From: a virus
Lineage: Duplodnaviria > Heunggongvirae > Uroviricota > Caudoviricetes
DNA: 18,498 nt
Direction: 5' to 3' (one strand)
IMG/VR virus record: IMGVR_UViG_2660238061_000008
The position numbers and the translations under genes are program-made. Position 1 is the first letter of the stretch. Each line of letters opens with the position of its first letter. Positions 1 to 18,498 of the stretch are shown here, piece after piece. Under the pieces are notes generated by a model. The model was not told the DNA's origin, did no database searches, and saw nothing but the letters and a program-made list of their open reading frames with translations.

Positions 1-174
1 TCAGAAAAAGATGATATTGAATCGCCCATTGAAAAACTGGAGGGCAGCGTCGCTGATCTGAATAAAAAATTGTCGGTGCTGATTCCTTCTGAAGATGAAA
101 AAAAACGCCGCGATGAGCAGTTTGCGGCGTTTTACGATTATTGCATTGAAGTTACTCTCGCAGGAATTTTGTGA
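1..174 (+). CDS. Hypothetical protein, C-terminal fragment (5' end lies outside the window)
   Basis: Frame 1 is open from position 1 to TGA at 172-174; codon usage is E. coli-like (CTG, GCG, CGC, GGC); the antisense frame gives poly-Phe junk, which favours this strand. Not a pinholin-like C-terminus. Confidence 0.4.
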   Translation, partial: SEKDDIESPIEKLEGSVADLNKKLSVLIPSEDEKKRRDEQFAAFYDYCIEVTLAGIL

Positions 175-414
175 AGATTTTTGAGGAGGGTAAATCTCTT
201 CAGTAAGCTTAATGGCGGACGCTGCAATTAATTCAGGAAGGTCCGCAAGGTCATCTGTCAGTGGATATGATGAAAAATCGGCGGCAGTTCTGTTAAGAAG
301 CGCTTTAACTAATTCCTTTTCCTTCTCCGGCAACAAGTTGATTAGAGCTACGACTGCTTGCCTGAGTGCGATTAAATCAGCAAAAGTTTGTTTAGGTAGA
401 TTTGTGTAATCCAT
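1..414 (-). CDS. Questionable hypothetical ORF (137 aa) in the AT-rich spacer upstream of the endolysin
   Basis: ATG at 412-414 (- strand) preceded by AGAGG about 5 nt upstream; N-terminal 80 aa look protein-like, but the C-terminal 50 aa overlap the + strand partial gene and are Phe-rich antisense-like; rare codons (CTA, AGG, TTA, AGA). Confidence 0.25.
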   Translation of the reverse strand: MDYTNLPKQTFADLIALRQAVVALINLLPEKEKELVKALLNRTAADFSSYPLTDDLADLPELIAASAIKLTEEIYPPQKSSQNSCESNFNAIIVKRRKLLIAAFFFIFRRNQHRQFFIQISDAALQFFNGRFNIIFF

Positions 415-527
415 AGTCGCCTCTGTGTTTATCAGATTGACATCCTCCTCCCGCCAGTGCCCATCACTGGTGAGGTAAGATTTAACATATCCGGGGATTT
501 GAAGCCGATAAATCCTGATAAATATCC

Positions 528-1555
<1,028 letters not shown>

Positions 1556-1679
1556 ATTAATATTAAATCGGATTATTTTTAGCGCTGAATGTGAAATTTA
1601 AATAAAAAGGACTCTTCCATGAGTCAAAATCCTTGAAATCTTAAGGGTAAGATAAAAGGTCATTAGACAGAATGACACG

Positions 1680-1915
1680 TTTTATTAATAAATAAAGCTA
1701 TTGTTTCATTCGTGTGTTTTTCTTTACAAAAGTAATCCTTGCTATGGTTGGTTAATCATGCGTTAATGGTGTTCTGGTTTGTTACAAAATTATCTGAAGC
1801 AGTCATTGTTATAATTTTATTATTTGTACCTCTTGAGATTTCCTTGTTGGTTTTTCTCTCTGATATTTTTTTTCGGACCATTCTGCCCAAGGGCTAACTT
1901 CTTCAAAAGGTAATA
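1680..1915 (+). promoter_or_regulatory. cspA-like promoter and long 5' UTR for the cold-shock gene
   Basis: AT-rich UP-like tract 1680-1735; -35 TTGCTA (1739-1744), 17-bp spacer, -10 GTTAAT (1762-1767), resembling cspA TTGCAT/CTTAAT; alternative extended -10 TGtTATAAT at 1807-1815; AAAGGTAATA just before the ATG resembles the cspA leader. Confidence 0.35.
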
Positions 1916-1918
1916 ATG

Positions 1919-2131
1919 ATGTCTAACAAAATGACTGGTTTAGTGAAATGGTTTAACCCTGAAAAAGGTTTTGGTTTCATCACGCCGAAAGATGGTAGCA
2001 AAGATGTGTTTGTCCATTTCTCAGCTATTCAGAGCAACGATTTCAAAACGTTAACTGAGAATCAGGAAGTCGAATTTGGTATTGAGAACGGACCTAAAGG
2101 CCCCGCGGCTGTTCATGTTGTGGCACTTTGA
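1919..2131 (+). CDS. cspI: Cold-shock protein, CspA family (CspI-like, prophage-encoded)
   Basis: Translation [38 protein letters not shown]... carries RNP1/RNP2 cold-shock-domain motifs and matches my recollection of E. coli CspI. Tandem ATGs at 1916 and 1919. Confidence 0.9.
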
Positions 2132-2330
2132 GGTAGAAAATATTACAAACCATATTCACTTTAGATGCCCGTGTTGCCATGGTTCTCAGTATAGAACATC
2201 ATCTTTTGATGTTTCTGACAGGAATCCTTTCGGGGCAAAATGTATCTTTTGTAAATCAATGATGATTACATTTGATAATATTTCACAATACTTAAATGTT
2301 AGCCGTCTATCGTTAGATTTAAGAAAGTGA
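2115..2330 (+). CDS. Putative small Cys-rich (zinc-ribbon-like) protein; very uncertain
   Basis: ORF overlapping the csp stop; contains HFRCPCCHG...AKCIFCK (two Cys pairs about 25 aa apart); ends 6 nt before a strong terminator; no clear SD, rare codons, start ambiguous (TTG 2076 or ATG 2115). Confidence 0.25.
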
Positions 2331-2335
2331 AAATG

Positions 2336-2358
2336 AAGGCTCCTTCGGGAGCTTTTTT
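2336..2358 (+). terminator. Rho-independent terminator closing the csp transcription unit
   Basis: GC-rich stem GGCTCC / GGAGC around a TTCG tetraloop, followed by TTTTTT (2353-2358). Confidence 0.6.
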
Positions 2359-2442
2359 GCTTAGTGTCTAGTCGATGGATACTCACATATTACGGTAACA
2401 TTATGAAAAAAAATAATAGTTTTTTTTAACTCTGAACCAGCA

Positions 2443-2634
2443 ATGGTAGTGCCAGTGATGACCGGAGTTAACACCATCATGCGTGAATATCCAAATGGCG
2501 AAACAACACACCTCACTGTAATGGCTGCAGGGTTTCCATCTCTGACCGGAGATCATAAAGTCATTTATGTAGCAGCGGATCGACATGTAACTTCAGAAGA
2601 AATTCTGGAAGCAGCAATGAGACTCTTGAATTGA
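2443..2634 (+). CDS. Hypothetical small protein (63 aa), moron region
   Basis: ATG-initiated ORF with protein-like composition (MTGVNTIMREYPNGETTHLTVMAAGFPSLTGDHKVIYVAADRHVTSEEILEAAMRLLN); no recognisable SD; antisense frame is junk. Confidence 0.4.
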   Translation: MVVPVMTGVNTIMREYPNGETTHLTVMAAGFPSLTGDHKVIYVAADRHVTSEEILEAAMRLLN

Positions 2635-2728
2635 TTTGATTCTAATGCATTGATAATAAATGATAATCATCTTTATCTGTTTGTGTGAAATTTAGACCGT
2701 CGTATGTTGATTATTGCGATGTTTCATC

Positions 2729-2757
2729 TTATCTTTTATACGTTTGCTCCATATAAT
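2729..2757 (+). promoter_or_regulatory. Candidate sigma70 promoter upstream of the gns gene
   Basis: Perfect -10 TATAAT at 2752-2757 with a weak -35 (TTATCT 2729-2734) at 17-bp spacing; lies about 50 nt upstream of the gns start. Confidence 0.3.
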
Positions 2758-2806
2758 TGACACTACTGTGTACCAGGAAAGTCATAACAGACTAAAAGAG
2801 GAAATG

Positions 2807-2980
2807 ATGAACATTGAAGAGTTAAAAACAAAAACAGAAGCAGATATTTCTGAATATATAACAAAAAAAATCATTGAGCTTAAGAAAAAGACCGGGAAAG
2901 AAGTTACCAGTATCCAGTTTACTGCACGGGAAAAAATGACTGGTCTTGAAAGCTATGATATCAAGATTGATTTAATCTAG
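2807..2980 (+). CDS. gnsB: GnsA/GnsB-family small protein
   Basis: Translation MNIEELKTKTEADISEYITKKIIELKKKTGKEVTSIQFTAREKMTGLESYDIKIDLI closely resembles E. coli GnsB/GnsA (57 aa); SD AAGAGGAA upstream; tandem ATGs at 2804/2807. Confidence 0.8.
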   Translation: MNIEELKTKTEADISEYITKKIIELKKKTGKEVTSIQFTAREKMTGLESYDIKIDLI

Positions 2981-3109
2981 TCTGTTTAGTATTAGCATCA
3001 ATTTCTCATCAGATGCTATTCAACAATACAAATTACCCATAAACCTCGTTTTTACGGGGTTTTGTTATATTTAAACATTACCGAATAGGTATAAATCTCG
3101 ATTGTCGAT

Positions 3110-3132
3110 GGTATTGGTTGTGTGACAATACC
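3110..3132. repeat. Inverted repeat GGTATTG-N9-CAATACC (possible operator or RNA hairpin)
   Basis: Perfect 7-bp arms at 3110-3116 and 3126-3132 in the intergenic region upstream of ORF 3274. Confidence 0.4.
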
Positions 3133-3273
3133 TAGTCTTTCCGGTATGCCTGAAGAGAATACAAACGACAGATTATGTAAGGGAAACGCGCTGAATCTTT
3201 AACTCTTTCATGCTGAGTGATTTGACGTTATATTTTTAGCCGTAAGTGAAGAGCAAACGCATGGAGCGACAAA

Positions 3274-3480
3274 ATGCATAAAGATCAATACACTGATGCC
3301 CCCTCCCAGGAGCAGGTTCGTGTAAAAACTATGCTTAATAGCACCATTTCGATGGGTTACCCGGATGTTGTAATTGCATGTATAGAACATCAAGTGTCTC
3401 TGGAAGCATTCAGGGCAATTGAGGCCGCGTTAGTAAAGCACGATAAGAATACGAAGGATTATTCCCTGGTGGTTGACTGA
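3274..3480 (+). CDS. Small hypothetical prophage protein (68 aa)
   Basis: ORF with GGAG 8 nt upstream of the ATG; protein-like sequence ...[40 protein letters not shown]...; I recall a similar ORF near the right end of lambda, which would imply a conserved moron gene. The true start may be internal (MLNSTIS...). Confidence 0.55.
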
Positions 3481-3515
3481 TCACCATAACTGCTAACCAT
3501 TCTGACCATTTCACA

Positions 3516-3546
3516 AGTGACAGAGTCAATATCGTATTCTGTCACT
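3516..3546. repeat. Inverted repeat AGTGACAGA-N13-TCTGTCACT
   Basis: 9-bp perfect arms (3516-3524 / 3538-3546); no following T-tract on either strand, so not a typical intrinsic terminator. Confidence 0.5.
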
Positions 3547-3837
3547 GTCAGGCTAATACAGCAATGCAATTCAACTACAGCAATGCCTCGTATTTAGGTG
3601 AATTTACAATATCGTCCAGTTCGGATGCCGGCTGCATTTCTGAAGATAAGGCATTTCGGTTCTCGTATTTTCCCCTCATGCTCGTCAGTCCTGCGCGTAG
3701 TAAGAAACAGGACACTCACACTAATTTGTGTGGGCATGCTGTGATGTCCTTCTGAATTATCCCCATGCCATTATGTAAAGCTCTGTTTCAGATGCTCGTC
3801 ACGGTTGTCAGGCTGTCGGGTCCTCCCAGTGGGGGTC

Positions 3838-3866
3838 CCTGCCACGGGGCGGGAGCGTCGCGGAAA
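3838..3866 (+). other. cos: Putative cos site (cosN-like nicking region) upstream of the terminase genes
   Basis: CACGGGGCGGGAGCGTCGCGG resembles lambda cosN ACGGGGCGGCGACCTCGCGG; located about 185 bp upstream of the small terminase start, as in lambda (cos to Nu1 about 190 bp); followed by an AT-rich cosB-like tract. Confidence 0.4.
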
Positions 3867-4030
3867 AAGGCTAGTTTTTGCATTTCCATGGCGGCGGCAG
3901 CATGTTTGGTAATTTATTGATAATTAAAAGTTATTTCTCTTTTCAGCTGTACAATATTTTTTTCTCCCTGTCATTAGACTAGTTTGCAATTAATTGAAAT
4001 ATATAAATAAACCTGATTTTCACCTGCCAG

Positions 4031-6678: not shown

Positions 6679-6887
6679 ACCAGAATGATATCGAAGCCAT
6701 GATTCAGCGTTATACGGAAGCTGAAATGGCGGTGCTGGACGGAAAATCCGTCACCTTTAATGGTCAGCAGATGACCATGGAAAACTTATCTGAGATCCGG
6801 CAGGGACGGCAGGAGTGGGAGCGCCGCCTTGCGGCTCTGATTACACGACGACGGGGGCATCCCGGGTATCGGCTGGCGAGGTTCTGA
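6669..6887 (+). CDS. W: Head completion / head-tail joining protein (gpW-like)
   Basis: About 70 aa in the lambda W position and size, with a C-terminal RRRG motif as in gpW; overlaps the terminase stop; start is ATG 6669 or 6675 (GGAGG upstream). Confidence 0.7.
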   Translation: MVMNQNDIEAMIQRYTEAEMAVLDGKSVTFNGQQMTMENLSEIRQGRQEWERRLAALITRRRGHPGYRLARF

Positions 6888-8395
6888 TGGCAATTCTTGA
6901 TGATGTGATTGGCGTTTTTTCACCAGGATGGAAAGCGGCAAGGCTGCGTTCCCGTGCGGTGATCCAGGCTTATGAGGCCGTAAAAACGACGCGGACACAC
7001 AAAGCCCGACGGGAGAACCGAACTGCCGACCAGTTAAGCCAGTACGGGGCCGTGTCGTTACGTGAGCAGGCCCGTTACCTTGATAACAACCACGATCTGG
7101 TTATTGGTGTATTTGACAAGCTGGAAGAACGGGTGGTGGGGAAAAACGGGATTATTGTCGAGCCACATCCGGTATTACGCAATGGGGCCATTGCCCGTGA
7201 CCTGGCTGCGGAGATTCGCACCCGATGGAGTGAATGGTCTGTCAGCCCGGAAGTCACCGGGCAGTTTACCCGTCCGATGCTGGAACGTCTGATGCTTCGT
7301 ACCTGGCTGCGCGATGGTGAGGTGTTTGCCCAGATGGTTTCCGGGCGCATAAACAGCCTGACGCCTTCTGCCGGTGTTCATTTCTGGCTGGAGGCGCTCG
7401 AGCCGGACTTTATTCCCATGACCAGTGATGAGAGCAACAGGCTGAATCAGGGCGTGTTTGTTGATGACTGGGGGCGTCCCGAAAAATATCTGGTGTATAA
7501 AAGCCGTCCCGTATCCGGACGGCAGATGGAAACCAAAGAAGTGGATGCAGAGCGAATGCTGCATCTTAAATTTGTTCGCCGTCTGCACCAGATGCGCGGG
7601 ACGTCTTTATTGTCCGGTGTGCTGATCCGCCTCAGTGCTCTGAAAGAGTATGAAGATTCTGAGCTGACTGCAGCAAGGATCGCCGCTGCTCTGGGGATGT
7701 ACATCCGGAAAGGCGACGGGCAGAGCTATGAAGCGGATGGTAATGGCAGCAAGGATAAGGAACGCGAGCTTACCATTCAGCCAGGCATTATTTACGATGA
7801 TCTGAAACCCGGCGAAGAAATCGGAATGGTGAAGTCGGATCGCCCCAATCCTAACCTTGAAACTTTTCGTAATGGTCAGTTGCGTGCCGTGGCGGCGGGC
7901 AGTCGTCTGAGTTTTTCCAGTACAGCGCGCAACTATAACGGCACTTACAGCGCCCAGCGTCAGGAGCTGGTTGAATCCACTGATGGCTACCTGATCCTGC
8001 AGGACTGGTTTATTGGTGCCGTCACCCGTCCGATGTATCGTGCCTGGCTGAAACAGGCTGTGGCATCCGGTGTTATCAGGCTACCCCGCGATCTTGACCG
8101 TTCTTCACTGTATACCGCGGTGTATTCCGGACCGGTGATGCCGTGGATTGACCCTGTTAAGGAGGCTGAGGCCTGGAAAATCCAGATTCGTGGTGGAGCG
8201 GCGACAGAATCAGACTGGGTACGTGCTGGTGGTCGTAATCCGGATGATGTCAAACGTCGGCGCAAGGCCGAAATTGATGAAAACCGCAAGCTGGATCTGG
8301 TATTTGATACCGATCCGGCCAGTGATAAAGGAGGCAGCAGTGCCGCAACGAAACGACATGAGCCGCAGCACACCGACGACCAGTCCGAAGAATAA
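6887..8395 (+). CDS. B: Portal protein (lambda gpB family)
   Basis: About 500 aa ORF after W with ATGA start/stop overlap at 6885-6889; position and size match the lambda-family portal; acidic C-terminus. Confidence 0.9.
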   Translation: MAILDDVIGVFSPGWKAARLRSRAVIQAYEAVKTTRTHKARRENRTADQLSQYGAVSLREQARYLDNNHDLVIGVFDKLEERVVGKNGIIVEPHPVLRNGAIARDLAAEIRTRWSEWSVSPEVTGQFTRPMLERLMLRTWLRDGEVFAQMVSGRINSLTPSAGVHFWLEALEPDFIPMTSDESNRLNQGVFVDDWGRPEKYLVYKSRPVSGRQMETKEVDAERMLHLKFVRRLHQMRGTSLLSGVLIRLSALKEYEDSELTAARIAAALGMYIRKGDGQSYEADGNGSKDKERELTIQPGIIYDDLKPGEEIGMVKSDRPNPNLETFRNGQLRAVAAGSRLSFSSTARNYNGTYSAQRQELVESTDGYLILQDWFIGAVTRPMYRAWLKQAVASGVIRLPRDLDRSSLYTAVYSGPVMPWIDPVKEAEAWKIQIRGGAATESDWVRAGGRNPDDVKRRRKAEIDENRKLDLVFDTDPASDKGGSSAATKRHEPQHTDDQSEE

Positions 8396-8408
8396 TTCCT
8401 GGTTCAGG

Positions 8409-10367
8409 ATGCAGGCTGGTCACCAGAGTGACGCGGATATTTATATTTATGACGAGATTGGTTTCTGGGGTGTTACAGCGAAGCAGTTTATCAGTGATCT
8501 GAATGCACTGGGCGATATCACCCACATTAATCTCCATATTAATTCACCGGGTGGCGATGTCTTTGAAGGCATCGCCATTTTTAATGCGCTGAAAACACAT
8601 GGTGCGTCCATTACCGTTTATGTCGACGGTGTGGCGGCGTCAATGGCGTCGGTCATTGCGATGGTGGGAAACCCGGTCATTATGCCGGAAAACACCTTCA
8701 TGATGATTCATAAACCATTTGGCTTTACGGGCGGTGATGCGGAGGACATGCGCACCTATGCCGACCTGCTCGATAAAGTTGAGGCGGTTCTGTTACCCGC
8801 TTATGCACAGAAAACCGGGAAAACCACCGATGAAATTGCTGCCATGCTGGCGGATGAGACCTGGATGTCCGGTGCCGAATGTCTGGCACATGGATTTGCT
8901 GATCAGGTAACGCCAGCCGTTAAGGCAATGGCATGTATTCAGTCAAAACGTACAGAGGAATTTAAAAAGATGCCGGAATCCATTCGAAACATGATTACTC
9001 CGCCACGCAACAGTGCTCCACGCGTACAGGATAATGAACCTGAAGCCTCCCGGACGCCAGTGCAGGCAGCAGCACCCGTGGTGGATGAAAACAGCATCCG
9101 TGCGCAGGTACTGGCAGAGCAAAAAGCGCGTGTAAACGGTATTAATGATCTGTTTGCCATGTTTGGCGGGCGTTATCAGACGCTGCAGGCTCAGTGTCTT
9201 GCCGATCCTGAATGTTCGCTGGAGCAGGCCCGCGAAAAGCTGTTGAACGAGATGGGGCGCGAGTCCACGCCATCCAATAAAAATACCCCGGCTCATATTT
9301 ATGCCGGTAACGGTAATTTTGTGGGGGACGGGATCCGCCAGGCGCTGATGGCGCGTGCCGGATTTGAAAAAACCGAACGTGATAATGTCTACAACGGGAT
9401 GACCCTGCGTGAATATGCCCGTATGTCACTGACTGAACGGGGTATTGGGGTTTCCAGTTATAACCCGATGCAGATGGTCGGTGCGGCGTTCACACACAGT
9501 ACGTCTGACTTCGGTAATATTCTGCTGGATGTTGCGAACAAAGCCATTCTGCAGGGCTGGGAAGATGCCCCTGAAACCTATGAACAGTGGACGCGGAAAG
9601 GTCAGTTGTCTGATTTTAAAATTGCCCATCGTGTGGGTATGGGTGGCTTCAGTGCTCTGCGTCAGGTGCGTGAAGGGGCGGAATATAAATACGTCACCAC
9701 CGGAGATAAACAGGCCACTATTGCACTGGCGACCTATGGCGAGCTGTTCAGTATCACCCGTCAGGCCATTATCAATGATGATCTGAATATGCTGACCGAT
9801 GTCCCGATGAAACTGGGCCGTGCGGCGAAATCCACTATTGCCGATCTGGTTTATGCCATTCTGACGTCTAACCCGAAAATCTCCACAGATAATGTAAGTC
9901 TGTTCGATAAAGCGAAACATGCAAACGTACTGGAGAGCGCTGCAATGGACGTGGCATCGCTGGATAAAGCCCGCCAGTTGATGCGCGTTCAGAAAGAGGG
10001 GGAGCGTCATCTGAATATTCGTCCTGCGTTCGTACTGGTACCGACGGCGATGGAGTCTGTTGCTAACCAGGTCATTCGCTCCTCAAGTGTCAAGGGGGCT
10101 GACATTAACGCCGGTATTATTAACCCGGTGAAAGATTTTGCGACCGTTATTGCAGAGCCTCGTCTTGATGATAACAGCCAGACCACCTTCTACCTGGCTG
10201 CGTCAAAAGGCTCCGATACGATTGAAGTGGCTTATCTCAACGGTGTGGATACGCCATATATTGATCAGATGGAGGGCTTCAGTGTGGATGGCGTGACAAC
10301 GAAAGTGCGTATTGACGCCGGTGTCGCGCCAGTTGATCACCGCGGTCTGGTGAAATGTACGGCGTAA
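8409..10367 (+). CDS. Fused prohead protease (ClpP/S49-like) - scaffold-like linker - major capsid protein (tripartite capsid gene, Gifsy-2-like)
   Basis: N-terminal domain has ClpP-like motifs (IYIYDEIGF, INSPGGDVFEG, GVAASMAS, MMIHKP); middle is Pro/Gln/Ala-rich; the C-terminal 400 aa is a large capsid-type domain. Alternative starts: GTG 8340 (AAGGAGG 5 nt upstream) or ATG 8358. Confidence 0.85.
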   Translation: MQAGHQSDADIYIYDEIGFWGVTAKQFISDLNALGDITHINLHINSPGGDVFEGIAIFNALKTHGASITVYVDGVAASMASVIAMVGNPVIMPENTFMMIHKPFGFTGGDAEDMRTYADLLDKVEAVLLPAYAQKTGKTTDEIAAMLADETWMSGAECLAHGFADQVTPAVKAMACIQSKRTEEFKKMPESIRNMITPPRNSAPRVQDNEPEASRTPVQAAAPVVDENSIRAQVLAEQKARVNGINDLFAMFGGRYQTLQAQCLADPECSLEQAREKLLNEMGRESTPSNKNTPAHIYAGNGNFVGDGIRQALMARAGFEKTERDNVYNGMTLREYARMSLTERGIGVSSYNPMQMVGAAFTHSTSDFGNILLDVANKAILQGWEDAPETYEQWTRKGQLSDFKIAHRVGMGGFSALRQVREGAEYKYVTTGDKQATIALATYGELFSITRQAIINDDLNMLTDVPMKLGRAAKSTIADLVYAILTSNPKISTDNVSLFDKAKHANVLESAAMDVASLDKARQLMRVQKEGERHLNIRPAFVLVPTAMESVANQVIRSSSVKGADINAGIINPVKDFATVIAEPRLDDNSQTTFYLAASKGSDTIEVAYLNGVDTPYIDQMEGFSVDGVTTKVRIDAGVAPVDHRGLVKCTA

Positions 10368-10389: not shown

Positions 10390-10410
10390 TGGCCCGTAAG
10401 GGCTTTTTTT
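10390..10410 (+). terminator. Weak rho-independent terminator after the capsid gene
   Basis: Short stem GGCCC / GGGCC-like around a GTAA loop, followed by TTTTTTT (10404-10410). Confidence 0.4.
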
Positions 10411-10453
10411 GTACCTGAAATCAGCCCCTGAACGGGGCTGTGCGGAGACAGTT

Positions 10454-10777
10454 ATGGCAAAGAATTTTGTAGAAGAAGGAAAAACGGTGGCGATTGTTGC
10501 CAGTGCAGCCATCAGCAGCGGAGATCTGGTGCAGGTGGGTGATGTTTTTGCGGTGGCGCTGACCGATATTCCACAGGGTGAAACAGGCGACGGCATGACC
10601 GAAGGTGTGTTTATCCTGCCTAAACTGAAAACGGATGACATGAAAACGGGTAAGAAGGTTTATCTGAAGTCCGGAAAAGTTCAGCTGACTAACAGCGGCT
10701 CTGATCCGCTGGTCGGGGTTGTCTGGGCAGATGCCGGAACCAGTGCAGAAGAAGTGCCGGTAAAACTCAATGTCTGA
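10454..10777 (+). CDS. Small head protein, DUF2190-like (putative capsid decoration/cement protein)
   Basis: Translation MAKNFVEEGKTVAIVASAAISSGDLVQVGDVFAVALTDIPQGETGDGMTEGVFILPK... matches the about 110-aa family found right after major capsid genes; GGAGA SD 5 nt upstream. Confidence 0.6.
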   Translation: MAKNFVEEGKTVAIVASAAISSGDLVQVGDVFAVALTDIPQGETGDGMTEGVFILPKLKTDDMKTGKKVYLKSGKVQLTNSGSDPLVGVVWADAGTSAEEVPVKLNV

Positions 10778-16948: not shown

Positions 16949-17310
16949 ATGCAGGATATTCCACAGGAAACACATCATGAGACGACACGCCTCACTCAGT
17001 CAGCCCAGGTGGTGCTCTGGGAAATCGATCTGACAGTGGTCGGTGGAGAACGTTATTTTTTCTGTAATGAGCAGAACGAAAAAGGTGAGCCGATCACCTG
17101 GCAGGGGCGACAGTATCAGGCGTATCCCATTCAGGGGACGGGATTTGAACTGAACGGCAAGGGCAGTGCTGCCCGTCCGACACTGACGGTTTCTAACCTG
17201 CACGGCATGGTCACCGCGATGGCGGAAGACCTGCAGAGTCTGGTCGGAGGAACGGTGGTCCGGCGTAAGGTTTACGCCCGTTTTCTGGATGCGGTGAACT
17301 TCGTCAACGG
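16949..17310 (+). CDS. L: Minor tail protein L, N-terminal part only (truncated by the N gap)
   Basis: MQDIPQETHHETTRLTQSAQVVLWEIDLT.VGGERYFFCNEQNEKGEP.TWQGRQYQ.YPIQG.GFELNGKG...RPTLTVSNL.GMVT.MAED.QSLVGGTVVRRKVYARFLDAVNFVNG is nearly identical to the lambda gpL N-terminus; similarity ends exactly at the Ns. Confidence 0.9.
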
Positions 17311-17320
17311 NNNNNNNNNN
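17311..17320. other. Assembly gap (10 N): scaffold join between a prophage contig and a chromosomal contig
   Basis: Run of n characters; sequence character changes abruptly across it from phage tail gene L to REP elements and mhpE. Confidence 0.95.
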
Positions 17321-17440
17321 CACGCCGCATCCGGCTGTCGTGCGCAGATGCCTGATGCGACGCTAACACGTCTTATCAGGCCTACAAATTCTCACGCCAC
17401 CCGTAGGCCGGACAAGACGTTTACGCCGCATCCGGCAGTC
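17321..17440. repeat. REP/BIME cluster (repetitive extragenic palindromes)
   Basis: GCCTGATGCGACGCTAACACGTCTTATCAGGCCTAC (17350-17385) and inverted copy GTAGGCCGGACAAGACGTTTACGCCGCATCCGGCA (17403-17437) match the E. coli REP consensus; a partial copy abuts the gap. Confidence 0.8.
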
Positions 17441-17484
17441 GTGCTGGGATGGGCATACAAAATGCACGTTATCGGCAGTCATCA

Positions 17485-18498
17485 TTATTTGTTGTTGCGC
17501 AGATCCAGCGCCACGTCGACGATCATATCCTCCTGGCCGCCAACCATCCGGCGTTTGCCCAGCTCAACGAGAATATCCACCGCACTTAAGCCATAACGCG
17601 CCGCCGCCGTTTCACAGTGACGCAGGAAGCTCGAGTAAACACCAGCGTATCCCAGCGCCAGCGTTTCGCGATCGACTCGTACCGGTCGATCCTGCAACGG
17701 ACGCACCAGGTCGTCGGCGGCATCCATTAACGCATAGAGATCGGTCCCATGCTGCCAGCCCAGTTTATCCGCGGCGGCAATAAACACTTCCAGCGGTGCG
17801 TTACCTGCGCCCGCGCCCATTCCCGCGAGGCTGGCGTCGATTCGGTCGCAGCCCTCTTCCACCGCCGCGATAGAGTTCGCCACGCCAAGACTCAGGTTAT
17901 GGTGAGCGTGCATGCCAGTTTGCGTTTCTGGTTTCAGCTCTGCTTTCAGGGCGCGGAAACGGTCACGGATATCGCTCATGTTCATCGCACCGCCAGAATC
18001 CACCACATAAATACAGGTCGCACCGTAGCCTTCCATCAGCTTTGCCTGCTTGGCGAGATTCTCCGGCGTGGTCATATGGCTCATCATCAGAAAACCAACG
18101 GTGTCCATTCCGAGCTCGCGGGCATACTGAATATGCTGGGCGGAAACATCAGCTTCGGTACAGTGCGTTGCCACACTAACCACCCGCGCGCCAGCCTGCC
18201 AGGCATTTTTCAGATCGTGAATAGTGCCGATTCCTGGCAGCAACAACGTCGCGATTTTGGCGTGCTTCACCACATCCGCCGCCGCTTCAATCCATTCAAG
18301 GTCGCTATGTGCGCCGAAACCATAGTTAAAGCTGGAACCTTGCAAACCGTCGCCGTGGGCCACTTCAATCGAATCCACGCGGGCATCGTCCAGTGCTTTG
18401 GCAATCTGGCGAACGTTTTCCAGCGAATACTGATGACGAATGGCGTGCATACCGTCACGCAATGTGACGTCCGAGATATAAAGTTTTTTACCGTTCAT
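17485..18498 (-). CDS. mhpE: 4-hydroxy-2-oxovalerate aldolase (3-hydroxyphenylpropionate degradation)
   Basis: 337-aa translation [66 protein letters not shown]... is essentially E. coli MhpE; start codon sits at the window edge (18496-18498). Confidence 0.95.

Follow-up and report, generated by a model that had tools for sequence, protein, structure and literature searches.

Results

One open reading frame joins protease, linker and capsid domains

The window, a stretch of 18,498 nucleotides of DNA from a virus of the Caudoviricetes (IMG/VR record IMGVR_UViG_2660238061_000008), carries on its + strand a frame that is open from position 8148 to a stop codon at 10365-10367. Counted from 8340, this frame comprises 675 codons with zero internal stops, so that a single frame spans all three parts of its product: a protease, a scaffold-like linker and a major capsid domain. 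The gene and its surroundings comprise the following features, with residues numbered from the start at 8340.

6887..8395, + strand: portal gene (Phage_portal_2, E 5.2e-82; a lambda-family portal by Pfam)
8327..8334, + strand: Shine-Dalgarno (SD) sequence AAAGGAGG, 5 nt 5' of the GTG start, read from the sequence
8340..10367, + strand: protease-scaffold-capsid fusion gene, encoding a precursor of 675 aa and 73.6 kDa
8400..8939, + strand: ClpP-fold (S14-like) prohead protease domain, aa ~21-200
8640-8642, 8709-8711 and 8856-8858, + strand: predicted catalytic codons S101, H124 and E173
8961..8975, + strand: boundary motif F208-K-K-M211-P212 (family consensus [FY]-x-[NHK]-x-P)
aa ~201-325: linker, in which three helices separate a disordered Pro/Ala-rich tether from a second disordered stretch
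9000..9086, + strand: Pro/Ala-rich tether, aa 221-249, disordered (pLDDT <50)
9087..9263, + strand: helical scaffold-like segment, aa 250-308, with AF2 helices at 250-273, 280-288 and 294-308
9264..9314, + strand: second disordered stretch (STPSNKNTPAHIYAGNG), aa 309-325 (pLDDT <50)
9315..10364, + strand: HK97-fold major capsid domain, aa ~326-675
10391..10411, + strand: terminator-like hairpin (GGCCCGTAAGGGCT followed by a T-run), 24 nt past the fusion gene stop
10454..10777, + strand: head decoration (cement) gene of the DUF2190 / Phage_cement_2 type (PF09956, E 2e-20), with its start as in RefSeq

The fusion protein scored 985.9 bits against the NCBIfam model NF045540 (cutoff 475), aligning over aa 32-674 with profile positions 2-651 of 652, and matched PHROG 133 over its full length; RefSeq names the product 'ClpP-like prohead protease/major capsid protein fusion protein' and places its start identically, at 8340. 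Membership of this Gifsy-2-type family is further borne out by the position of the gene between portal and decoration genes in the head module, by an N-terminal ClpP-fold domain with a catalytic Ser, His and acidic residue, and by a C-terminal HK97-fold major capsid domain. Against NF045541 the protein reached 400.6 bits, below the cutoff of 525, and only aa 223-672 (linker and capsid) aligned. Among models of cellular ClpP, TIGR00493 gave 59.6 bits (cutoff 308.6), and the others likewise stayed far under their cutoffs. Judged by these scores, the fusion protein shares a fold with cellular ClpP but is no ClpP orthologue, despite the many database entries that name it so.

Translation most likely starts within the portal gene

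The earlier note on this DNA had named three possible starts and left the choice between them ambiguous. All three are present, as GTG 8340, ATG 8358 and ATG 8409, and the SD, conservation and the RefSeq call together resolve the choice to GTG 8340; on sequence grounds this codon, inside the end of the portal gene, is most likely where translation of the fusion gene begins. Its SD is the strongest among all in-frame starts of the ORF, and SD, spacing and GTG are all kept in phage Eeyore (73% identity). ATG 8358 was rejected because the Met there is Arg or Ser in 99%-identical relatives, and ATG 8409 because it is missing from Gifsy-2 and a Pseudomonas phage; the latter is also disfavoured by a conserved (N/E)SW(F/Y) motif lying 5' of 8409 and 3' of the portal stop. 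RefSeq mEp460, like some further records, has the gene beginning at the equivalent of 8409, which the comparison, favouring GTG 8340, suggests is too late.

The fusion gene shares its first 56 nt, in a different frame, with the end of the portal gene, an arrangement paralleled, according to the record annotations, by B/C in lambda and by the Gifsy-2 portal. The portal itself is 64% identical to that of Gifsy-2 and 22% identical to lambda B. About ten database proteins of 1159 aa with portal, protease and capsid domains raised the idea of a programmed frameshift joining the two genes, which we rejected because the junction position differs in each protein examined; these proteins are the product of independent 1-nt indels or sequencing errors.

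A further in-frame start codon, ATG 8970 (M211), lies exactly at the protease/linker boundary. If it were also used, a 465-aa protease-less scaffold-capsid protein would be nested within the longer one, as lambda Nu3 is within C, with protease-bearing subunits in the minority. In close relatives this start looked promising: neither M211 nor P212 varies among 35 homologs with identities down to 54%, MP also stands at the equivalent boundary of a Ralstonia fusion that has a different protease, AGGA or AGGAG is found 9-10 nt 5' of the ATG in 5/5 DNA sequences examined, and lambda C/Nu3 offers a precedent. In 129 distant fused representatives, however, the Met column mostly holds A, V, P, T, I or L, and most cannot be starts, while the Pro is kept in 109/129; since the Met is not conserved across this set, ATG 8970 was rejected as a feature of the family. 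The SD-like AGGA upstream of ATG 8970 is also weak (4 nt, 10-nt spacing) compared with the SD at 8340, and it overlaps conserved Glu-Glu-Phe codons, so that conservation of its bases needs no ribosome-binding role. It is improbable, then, even for the enterobacterial and pseudomonad branch, that the invariant ATG 8970 works as an internal start to give two nested products, protease-scaffold-capsid and scaffold-capsid. Were it true, such a start would tune the number of proteases per procapsid, as lambda does with C and Nu3.

The N-terminal domain retains a predicted catalytic triad

The N-terminal domain matches CLP_protease (Pfam) over aa 31-191 (E 2.8e-36) and contains an SPGG motif at aa 69-72, a ClpP-type serine motif (G97-V-A-A-S101-M-A103) and a His motif (M-I-H124-K-P). 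The catalytic Ser and His scarcely vary across the 129 distant fused representatives, 121 of which have E or D at the third catalytic position. We considered whether the domain might instead be an inactive ClpP-like fold that acts only as extra scaffold, with maturation carried out by another protease or not at all, as might be suspected from the Glu at a position that is Asp in cellular ClpP. The near-invariant Ser and His, together with the acidic residue at the third position, form a pattern unexpected for a dead enzyme, and the head module showed no second gene for a prohead protease, all of which makes an inactive domain very unlikely.

A disordered tether and a helical segment lead to the capsid domain

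The structure of the fusion protein was modelled with AF2 from an 83-sequence alignment (pLDDT 80.4), 35 fairly similar sequences having given a pLDDT of only 42.8; at a pTM of 0.51, the relative placement of the three parts in this model is not reliable. The tether at aa 221-249 contains 6 Pro and 5 Ala in 29 residues, and its length varies among homologs (indel-rich alignment columns). It is followed by the helices of aa 250-308, with a mean pLDDT of ~72-89 per 10-residue block. The unfused capsid protein of Dulem virus 34 carries a homologous counterpart of this segment as an N-terminal extension, and fusions with an S78 protease have one in their linker; both NF045540 and NF045541 align this region in the Dulem virus 34 capsid gene and in the fusion of Ralstonia YO122_2. 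No named scaffold family among those in Pfam matched the linker or its helical segment, for which we infer a scaffold function by analogy.

Within the second disordered stretch, P311 is invariant across 83 sequences. By comparison with the removal of the HK97 delta domain, aa 309-325 would most likely be the zone of maturation cleavage, and a cut at about residue 325 would leave a capsid domain of 38 kDa. This domain matches Phage_capsid_4 (Pfam) over aa 377-672 (E 1.8e-54). The CLP_protease and Phage_capsid_4 matches are both far beyond chance and uphold the earlier note's reading of a ClpP-like N-terminus and a C-terminal capsid domain, with a Pro/Ala-rich stretch in the linker between; of the motifs the note had cited, SPGG and H are present as described, whilst the serine motif is there but only loosely rendered as 'GxSxA'.

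The head module is of the Gifsy-2 type

The tripartite capsid gene of Gifsy-2 (STM1033 region) has the same three parts in identical order, and alignment at 70% identity over aa 18-674 substantiates the match to it that had been proposed from the sequence. There, the gene likewise overlaps the portal end and is followed by a terminator-like hairpin and then by a DUF2190 cement gene. The two differ in details only: the Gifsy-2 protein has 696 aa against 675 here, where the N-terminal tail is shorter, its gene starts with ATG rather than GTG, and the Pro/Ala/Gln tether is different in length and sequence. The hairpin downstream of the fusion gene is annotated as a rho-independent terminator in mEp460, and a hairpin at this position also comes after the gene in both Gifsy-2 and Pseudomonas phage CF165a, with a different sequence in CF165a. 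The decoration protein is 60% identical to the product of the equally placed Gifsy-2 gene; it had no match to lambda gpD by BLAST or Pfam family, and a sequence search found no solved structure for it.

Gene order from TerS and TerL through a W-like gene and the portal, fusion and decoration genes to gp07 follows that of Gifsy-2, with identities of 39-72%. Identity of the head genes to lambda A and B is no more than 22-24%, though the Pfam families match, and the lambda-like module begins at tail gene Z (50-86% identity). The module mosaicism suggested earlier, in which the fusion gene was grafted onto a lambda-like terminase, portal and tail, needs correcting: terminase and portal belong with the fusion and decoration genes to one Gifsy-2-type module, and what is lambda-like is the part from tail gene Z onwards. 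Towards the end of the window an apparently truncated tail gene L runs into mhpE, a junction that reflects the assembly, as 10 Ns (17312-17321) show, and not biology.

The contrast that had been drawn with lambda stands: C, Nu3, D and E are four genes there, separate or nested, and here a single gene encodes protease, scaffold-like linker and capsid. The Pfam families of protease, capsid and decoration protein differ as well (S49, Phage_cap_E and HDPD in lambda; CLP_protease, Phage_capsid_4 and Phage_cement_2 here), and BLASTP found no similarity to the lambda proteins, placing the genes outside the lambda type. Fusions of the NF045541 group, such as that of Ralstonia phage YO122_2, share the fused layout, and their linker and HK97-fold capsid part are homologous, but their protease is of the HK97/S78 type rather than ClpP-like. 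In Dulem virus 34 the parts are unfused, and a protease of 185 aa and a linker-capsid protein of 513 aa are encoded by two genes.

HK97 gp5 carries a scaffold-like N-terminal delta domain fused to the capsid protein, which is cut off by the prohead protease, and HK97 has no separate scaffold gene. The fusion protein resembles it in joining a scaffold-like extension to an HK97-fold capsid, yet the HK97 protease gp4 is a separate gene of the S78 family, whereas here the protease is ClpP-like and fused; HK97 also forms covalent cross-links where the present module has a cement protein.

The fusion is widespread and intact

The fusion gene is present in 2125 of 5426 complete E. coli genomes (~39%), and its uninterrupted ORF is 100% identical in several of the complete genomes. 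In the phages mEp460, cdtI, Ayreon, HannyBb, phi458, Tritos and vB_EcoS-569R4 the gene has 99.1-99.9% DNA identity and the same context; the first six are viable isolates, and their >99% identity is evidence of a working gene. The fused architecture occurs in 80 phage records and in >100 separate 50%-identity clusters, over which it is conserved down to 35-50% protein identity. That separate protease-scaffold and capsid genes had been joined by a frameshift from sequencing or assembly, or by decay of the prophage, as the assembly join in the window and the plainly erroneous fusions of this gene with portal or tail genes in public databases might suggest, is already refuted by these identities, by this depth of conservation and by a curated NCBIfam model that spans the full length.

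Discussion

Taken as a whole, the evidence very probably marks 8340-10367 as the gene for a capsid precursor, part of a lambdoid head module of the Gifsy-2 type that an E. coli prophage carries, and none of the results contradicts this. Its 73.6-kDa product begins with a ClpP-fold serine protease whose catalytic residues would be Ser101, His124 and Glu173, continues through a flexible tether into a small helical segment and ends in an HK97-fold capsid domain. A protease-scaffold-capsid gene of this type is already known and ordinary, as it was described for Gifsy-2 in 2010 and is present in about 39% of complete E. coli genomes.

A 2010 study of Gifsy-2 by Effantin and colleagues (Virology 402:355) reportedly described self-processing to the mature capsid protein and a decorated T=7 shell; literature searches for processing data gave nothing usable, and one text named Gifsy-2 only in a strain table. 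What is established for HK97 and lambda, together with that Gifsy-2 study, suggests the following course. The capsid domains would come together on the portal as a T=7 procapsid, with the protease and helical segments facing inward and the helical segment serving as a scaffold built into the subunit, in the manner of the HK97 delta domain. Once assembly has taken place, the tethered proteases would remove all sequence N-terminal to the capsid domain, probably by cleavage within aa 309-325. The fragments would then exit, the shell would expand during DNA packaging, and the DUF2190 cement protein would bind and stabilise it. Fusion would set protease, scaffold and coat at 1:1:1 and ensure that the protease is enclosed in the procapsid.

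Little of this is new, as the architecture has been known since 2010, has its own NCBIfam and PHROG families and bears a correct RefSeq name in thousands of genomes. Phage records nevertheless annotate the gene in at least 5 different ways, amongst them 'head maturation protease', 'Major head protein', 'protease/scaffold' and 'preconnector Nu3', and often miss its identity as the major capsid protein. With one linker-capsid unit found joined to two unrelated protease types, and also unfused, the family offers a tidy example of gene fusion and part swapping in head assembly.

A single gene encodes protease, linker and major capsid protein

An open frame on the + strand runs from 8148 to a stop codon at 10365-10367, and translation from the GTG at 8340, from which residues are numbered here, gives 675 residues with no internal stops. 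Pfam searches matched a ClpP-type N-terminus and a capsid-family C-terminus, as well as a partial Mu-like_gpT match, and the protein covers the entire 668-position profile of PHROG 133. It scores 985.9 bits (cutoff 475) against NCBIfam NF045540, [quoted passage not shown], and 215.7 bits (cutoff 120) against NF045542, the "head maturation protease, ClpP-related" domain model. The protease motifs named in the earlier note were found at SPGG (69-72), G-V-A-A-S101-M-A and M-I-H124-K-P. Its observation of a single-gene fusion is therefore real and its interpretation correct. The gene is a textbook case of a family that is both curated and very common, and so is already known.

Features of the fusion gene and the region downstream (nucleotide positions in the window; aa, residues of the fusion protein)
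8340-10367, + strand: protease, linker and major capsid protein fusion gene
aa 31-191: CLP_protease (Pfam, E 2.8e-36)
aa ~21-200: ClpP-like α/β domain (AlphaFold model, confident)
8961-8975, aa 208-212: motif [FY]-x-[NHK]-x-P, end of protease domain
about aa 221-249: disordered stretch (AlphaFold model)
aa 250-273, 280-288 and 294-308: three helices (AlphaFold model)
aa 309-325: second disordered stretch (AlphaFold model)
aa 326-675: C-terminal α/β domain (AlphaFold model, confident)
aa 377-672: Phage_capsid_4 (Pfam, E 1.8e-54)
10391-10411: terminator-like hairpin and T-run, 24 nt past the fusion gene stop
10454-10777: DUF2190 / Phage_cement_2 cement protein gene, 107 aa from ATG 10454

The fused layout is present in 80 phage records (at least 80% of the query spanned) and recurs in over 100 distinct clusters at 50% identity; Pseudomonas has it in abundance. 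Complete E. coli genomes carry the gene in 2125 of 5426 cases, with up to 6 copies each. Isolated phages (mEp460, cdtI, Ayreon, HannyBb, phi458, Tritos and vB_EcoS-569R4, among others) match its DNA at 99.1-99.9% identity, and Stx-converting phages at about 78%; annotations of the gene disagree widely across phage records. The likeness to Salmonella phage Gifsy-2 proposed from the sequence also held, the two proteins being 70% identical. Cryo-EM of the Gifsy-2 capsid by Effantin in 2010 reportedly revealed a T=7 shell with gpD-like decoration. That study is cited in PMC8538268.

Translation most likely starts at GTG 8340

The earlier note had left the start ambiguous among 8340, 8358 and 8409, an ambiguity that does not persist. 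GTG 8340 is preceded by AAAGGAGG at a spacing of 5 nt, the best ribosome-binding site of all in-frame starts, and both GTG and Shine-Dalgarno sequence are kept at equal distance in phage Eeyore (73% identity). At 8358, proteins of 99% identity have Arg or Ser in place of the Met, and the 8409 position lacks a start codon in Gifsy-2 and Pseudomonas phage CF165a. A conserved (N/E)SW(F/Y) motif also lies upstream of 8409 and downstream of the portal stop (8393-8395), so portal coding does not explain its conservation. RefSeq genome annotation uses the equivalent of 8340; RefSeq mEp460 uses that of 8409, which we consider too late on these comparisons. The fusion gene and portal gene therefore overlap by 56 nt, as do the Gifsy-2 homologue and its portal gene and, in a similar way, lambda C and B.

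Around the overlap (8148-8395), about ten singleton 1159-aa database proteins fuse portal, protease and capsid. A programmed frameshift was rejected, since the junction position differs among the three examined; each is a separate case of a 1-nt indel or an error in sequencing, with no recoding signal. Fragments of terminase, tape measure, L or J are joined to the fusion gene in other database chimeras, which probably derive from deleted prophages.

Conserved catalytic residues and a putative built-in scaffold

S101, H124 and E173, the last aligned with the catalytic Asp of ClpP, are invariant in alignments of 28 and 35 homologues. Of 129 distant representatives (about 35-60% identity), 128 retain S101 and 127 retain H124, and 121 have an acidic residue (E or D) at position 173. 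The pattern is consistent with a catalytically active protease.

With 35 fairly similar sequences as input, AlphaFold reached a pLDDT of only 42.8. The distant-representative profile was used to gather homologues at 37-52% identity for a deeper alignment, and an 83-sequence alignment gave a usable model (mean pLDDT 80.4) of five segments, with a confident domain at each end, the N-terminal one ClpP-like. Residues 221-249 are enriched in Pro and Ala and differ in length among close relatives, as expected for a flexible tether. The helical part, aa 250-308, has no Pfam family match; it is homologous to the N-terminal extension carried by the Dulem virus 34 capsid protein, which has a gene of its own, and to the linker of NF045541 fusions. 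Its position, predicted structure and homology suggest a scaffold that forms part of the capsid protein, acting as the delta domain does in HK97. Maturation cleavage would most likely fall within aa 309-325.

The boundary motif at aa 208-212 is conserved throughout the fused family; it may cap the domain, serve in docking or be a point of self-cleavage. It also contains an internal ATG (8970): M211 and P212 are invariant among homologues down to 54% identity, and in 5 genomes, the Ralstonia fusion among them, AGGA or AGGAG precedes the ATG by 9-10 nt. An internal start was nevertheless dropped for the family, as the Met column of distant representatives holds mainly A, V, P, T, I or L, only the Pro being conserved (109 of 129), and the SD-like bases double as conserved Glu-Glu-Phe codons. 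For the window's own branch, a working internal start has a low probability.

The fusion gene sits in a Gifsy-2-type head module

The genes for TerS, TerL, a W-like protein, portal, fusion protein, decoration protein and gp07 follow the Gifsy-2 order, with identities of 39-72%. Terminase and portal fall in lambda families by Pfam; TerL is 24% identical to lambda A and the portal 22% to lambda B, so that "lambda-like" holds solely at family level. BLASTP of the fusion and decoration proteins against lambda C, Nu3, E and D gave no match. Tail proteins Z, U, V, M and L share 50-86% identity with lambda. Of the mosaicism proposed earlier, the lambda-like tail thus stands, and the graft onto a lambda-like terminase and portal does not: the fusion gene is native to a Gifsy-2-type head module, and the recombination joint lies between gp07 and Z, away from the capsid gene.

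Upstream of the terminase, positions 1-4000 match Qin-type lysis and cargo genes (rrrQ lysozyme, rzpQ, cspI, ynfQ, ynfN and gnsB), judged by how RefSeq annotates a locus of 99% identity. In this prophage a Gifsy-2-like head is thus combined with a lambda-like tail and a Qin-like lysis region.

Downstream of the fusion gene, the hairpin is conserved in position in Gifsy-2 (L002, 24590-24603) and in CF165a (L004, 5020-5042), where its sequence differs from the window's. This positional conservation suggests a role in capsid mRNA level, which the hairpin may raise relative to downstream late genes. For the cement gene, the mechanical ORF is 10409-10777 (TTG 10409, 122 aa), while RefSeq and the Gifsy-2 homologue support ATG 10454; the protein showed no sequence match to lambda gpD or any solved structure.

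The 91-aa ORF at 10770-11045 matches Pfam "Gifsy-2" (PF13856), described as "ATP-binding sugar transporter from pro-phage", and is named "DNA breaking-rejoining protein" by RefSeq and "minor tail protein" in mEp460. All three names look unreliable; its place after the decoration gene and ahead of tail gene Z makes a head-completion or connector protein more likely. Ten Ns (17312-17321) link a tail gene L interrupted after codon 121 with chromosomal mhpE and mhpF (minus strand, within 17322-18498). The N-run is a contig or scaffold join, making the L truncation and a 215-aa ORF (16949-17596) artefactual.

Proposed precursor processing and protease swaps

The analysis shows a single ORF, set in a head module, that combines a ClpP fold retaining its catalytic residues, a helix-bearing tether and an HK97 fold. 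We regard the protease-scaffold-capsid precursor mechanism proposed on this basis as very probable. Capsid domains would assemble on the portal with their N-terminal parts inside, the tethered proteases would remove all sequence N-terminal to the capsid domain, and the shell would expand upon packaging and be stabilised by the DUF2190 cement protein.

Ralstonia phage YO122_2 (L006, 3329-5422) encodes a 697-aa fusion that matches NF045541 at 744 bits and carries the shared linker-capsid part behind a different protease, HK97/S78-type where that of the window is ClpP-like. The NF045541 protease portion corresponds to the separate, HK97/S78-related protease of Dulem virus 34 (L007, 2763-4877). 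In that virus the parts are unfused, encoded by one gene of 185 aa and another of 513 aa, and the record mislabels the protease gene as "major capsid protein". As the linker-capsid unit is found with both protease types, fused (YO122_2 and the window) and unfused (Dulem virus 34), it is the stable element, preceded by proteases of two unrelated types, fused or separate. Between them, YO122_2 and Dulem virus 34 provide a short natural series in which proteases are swapped and fused.
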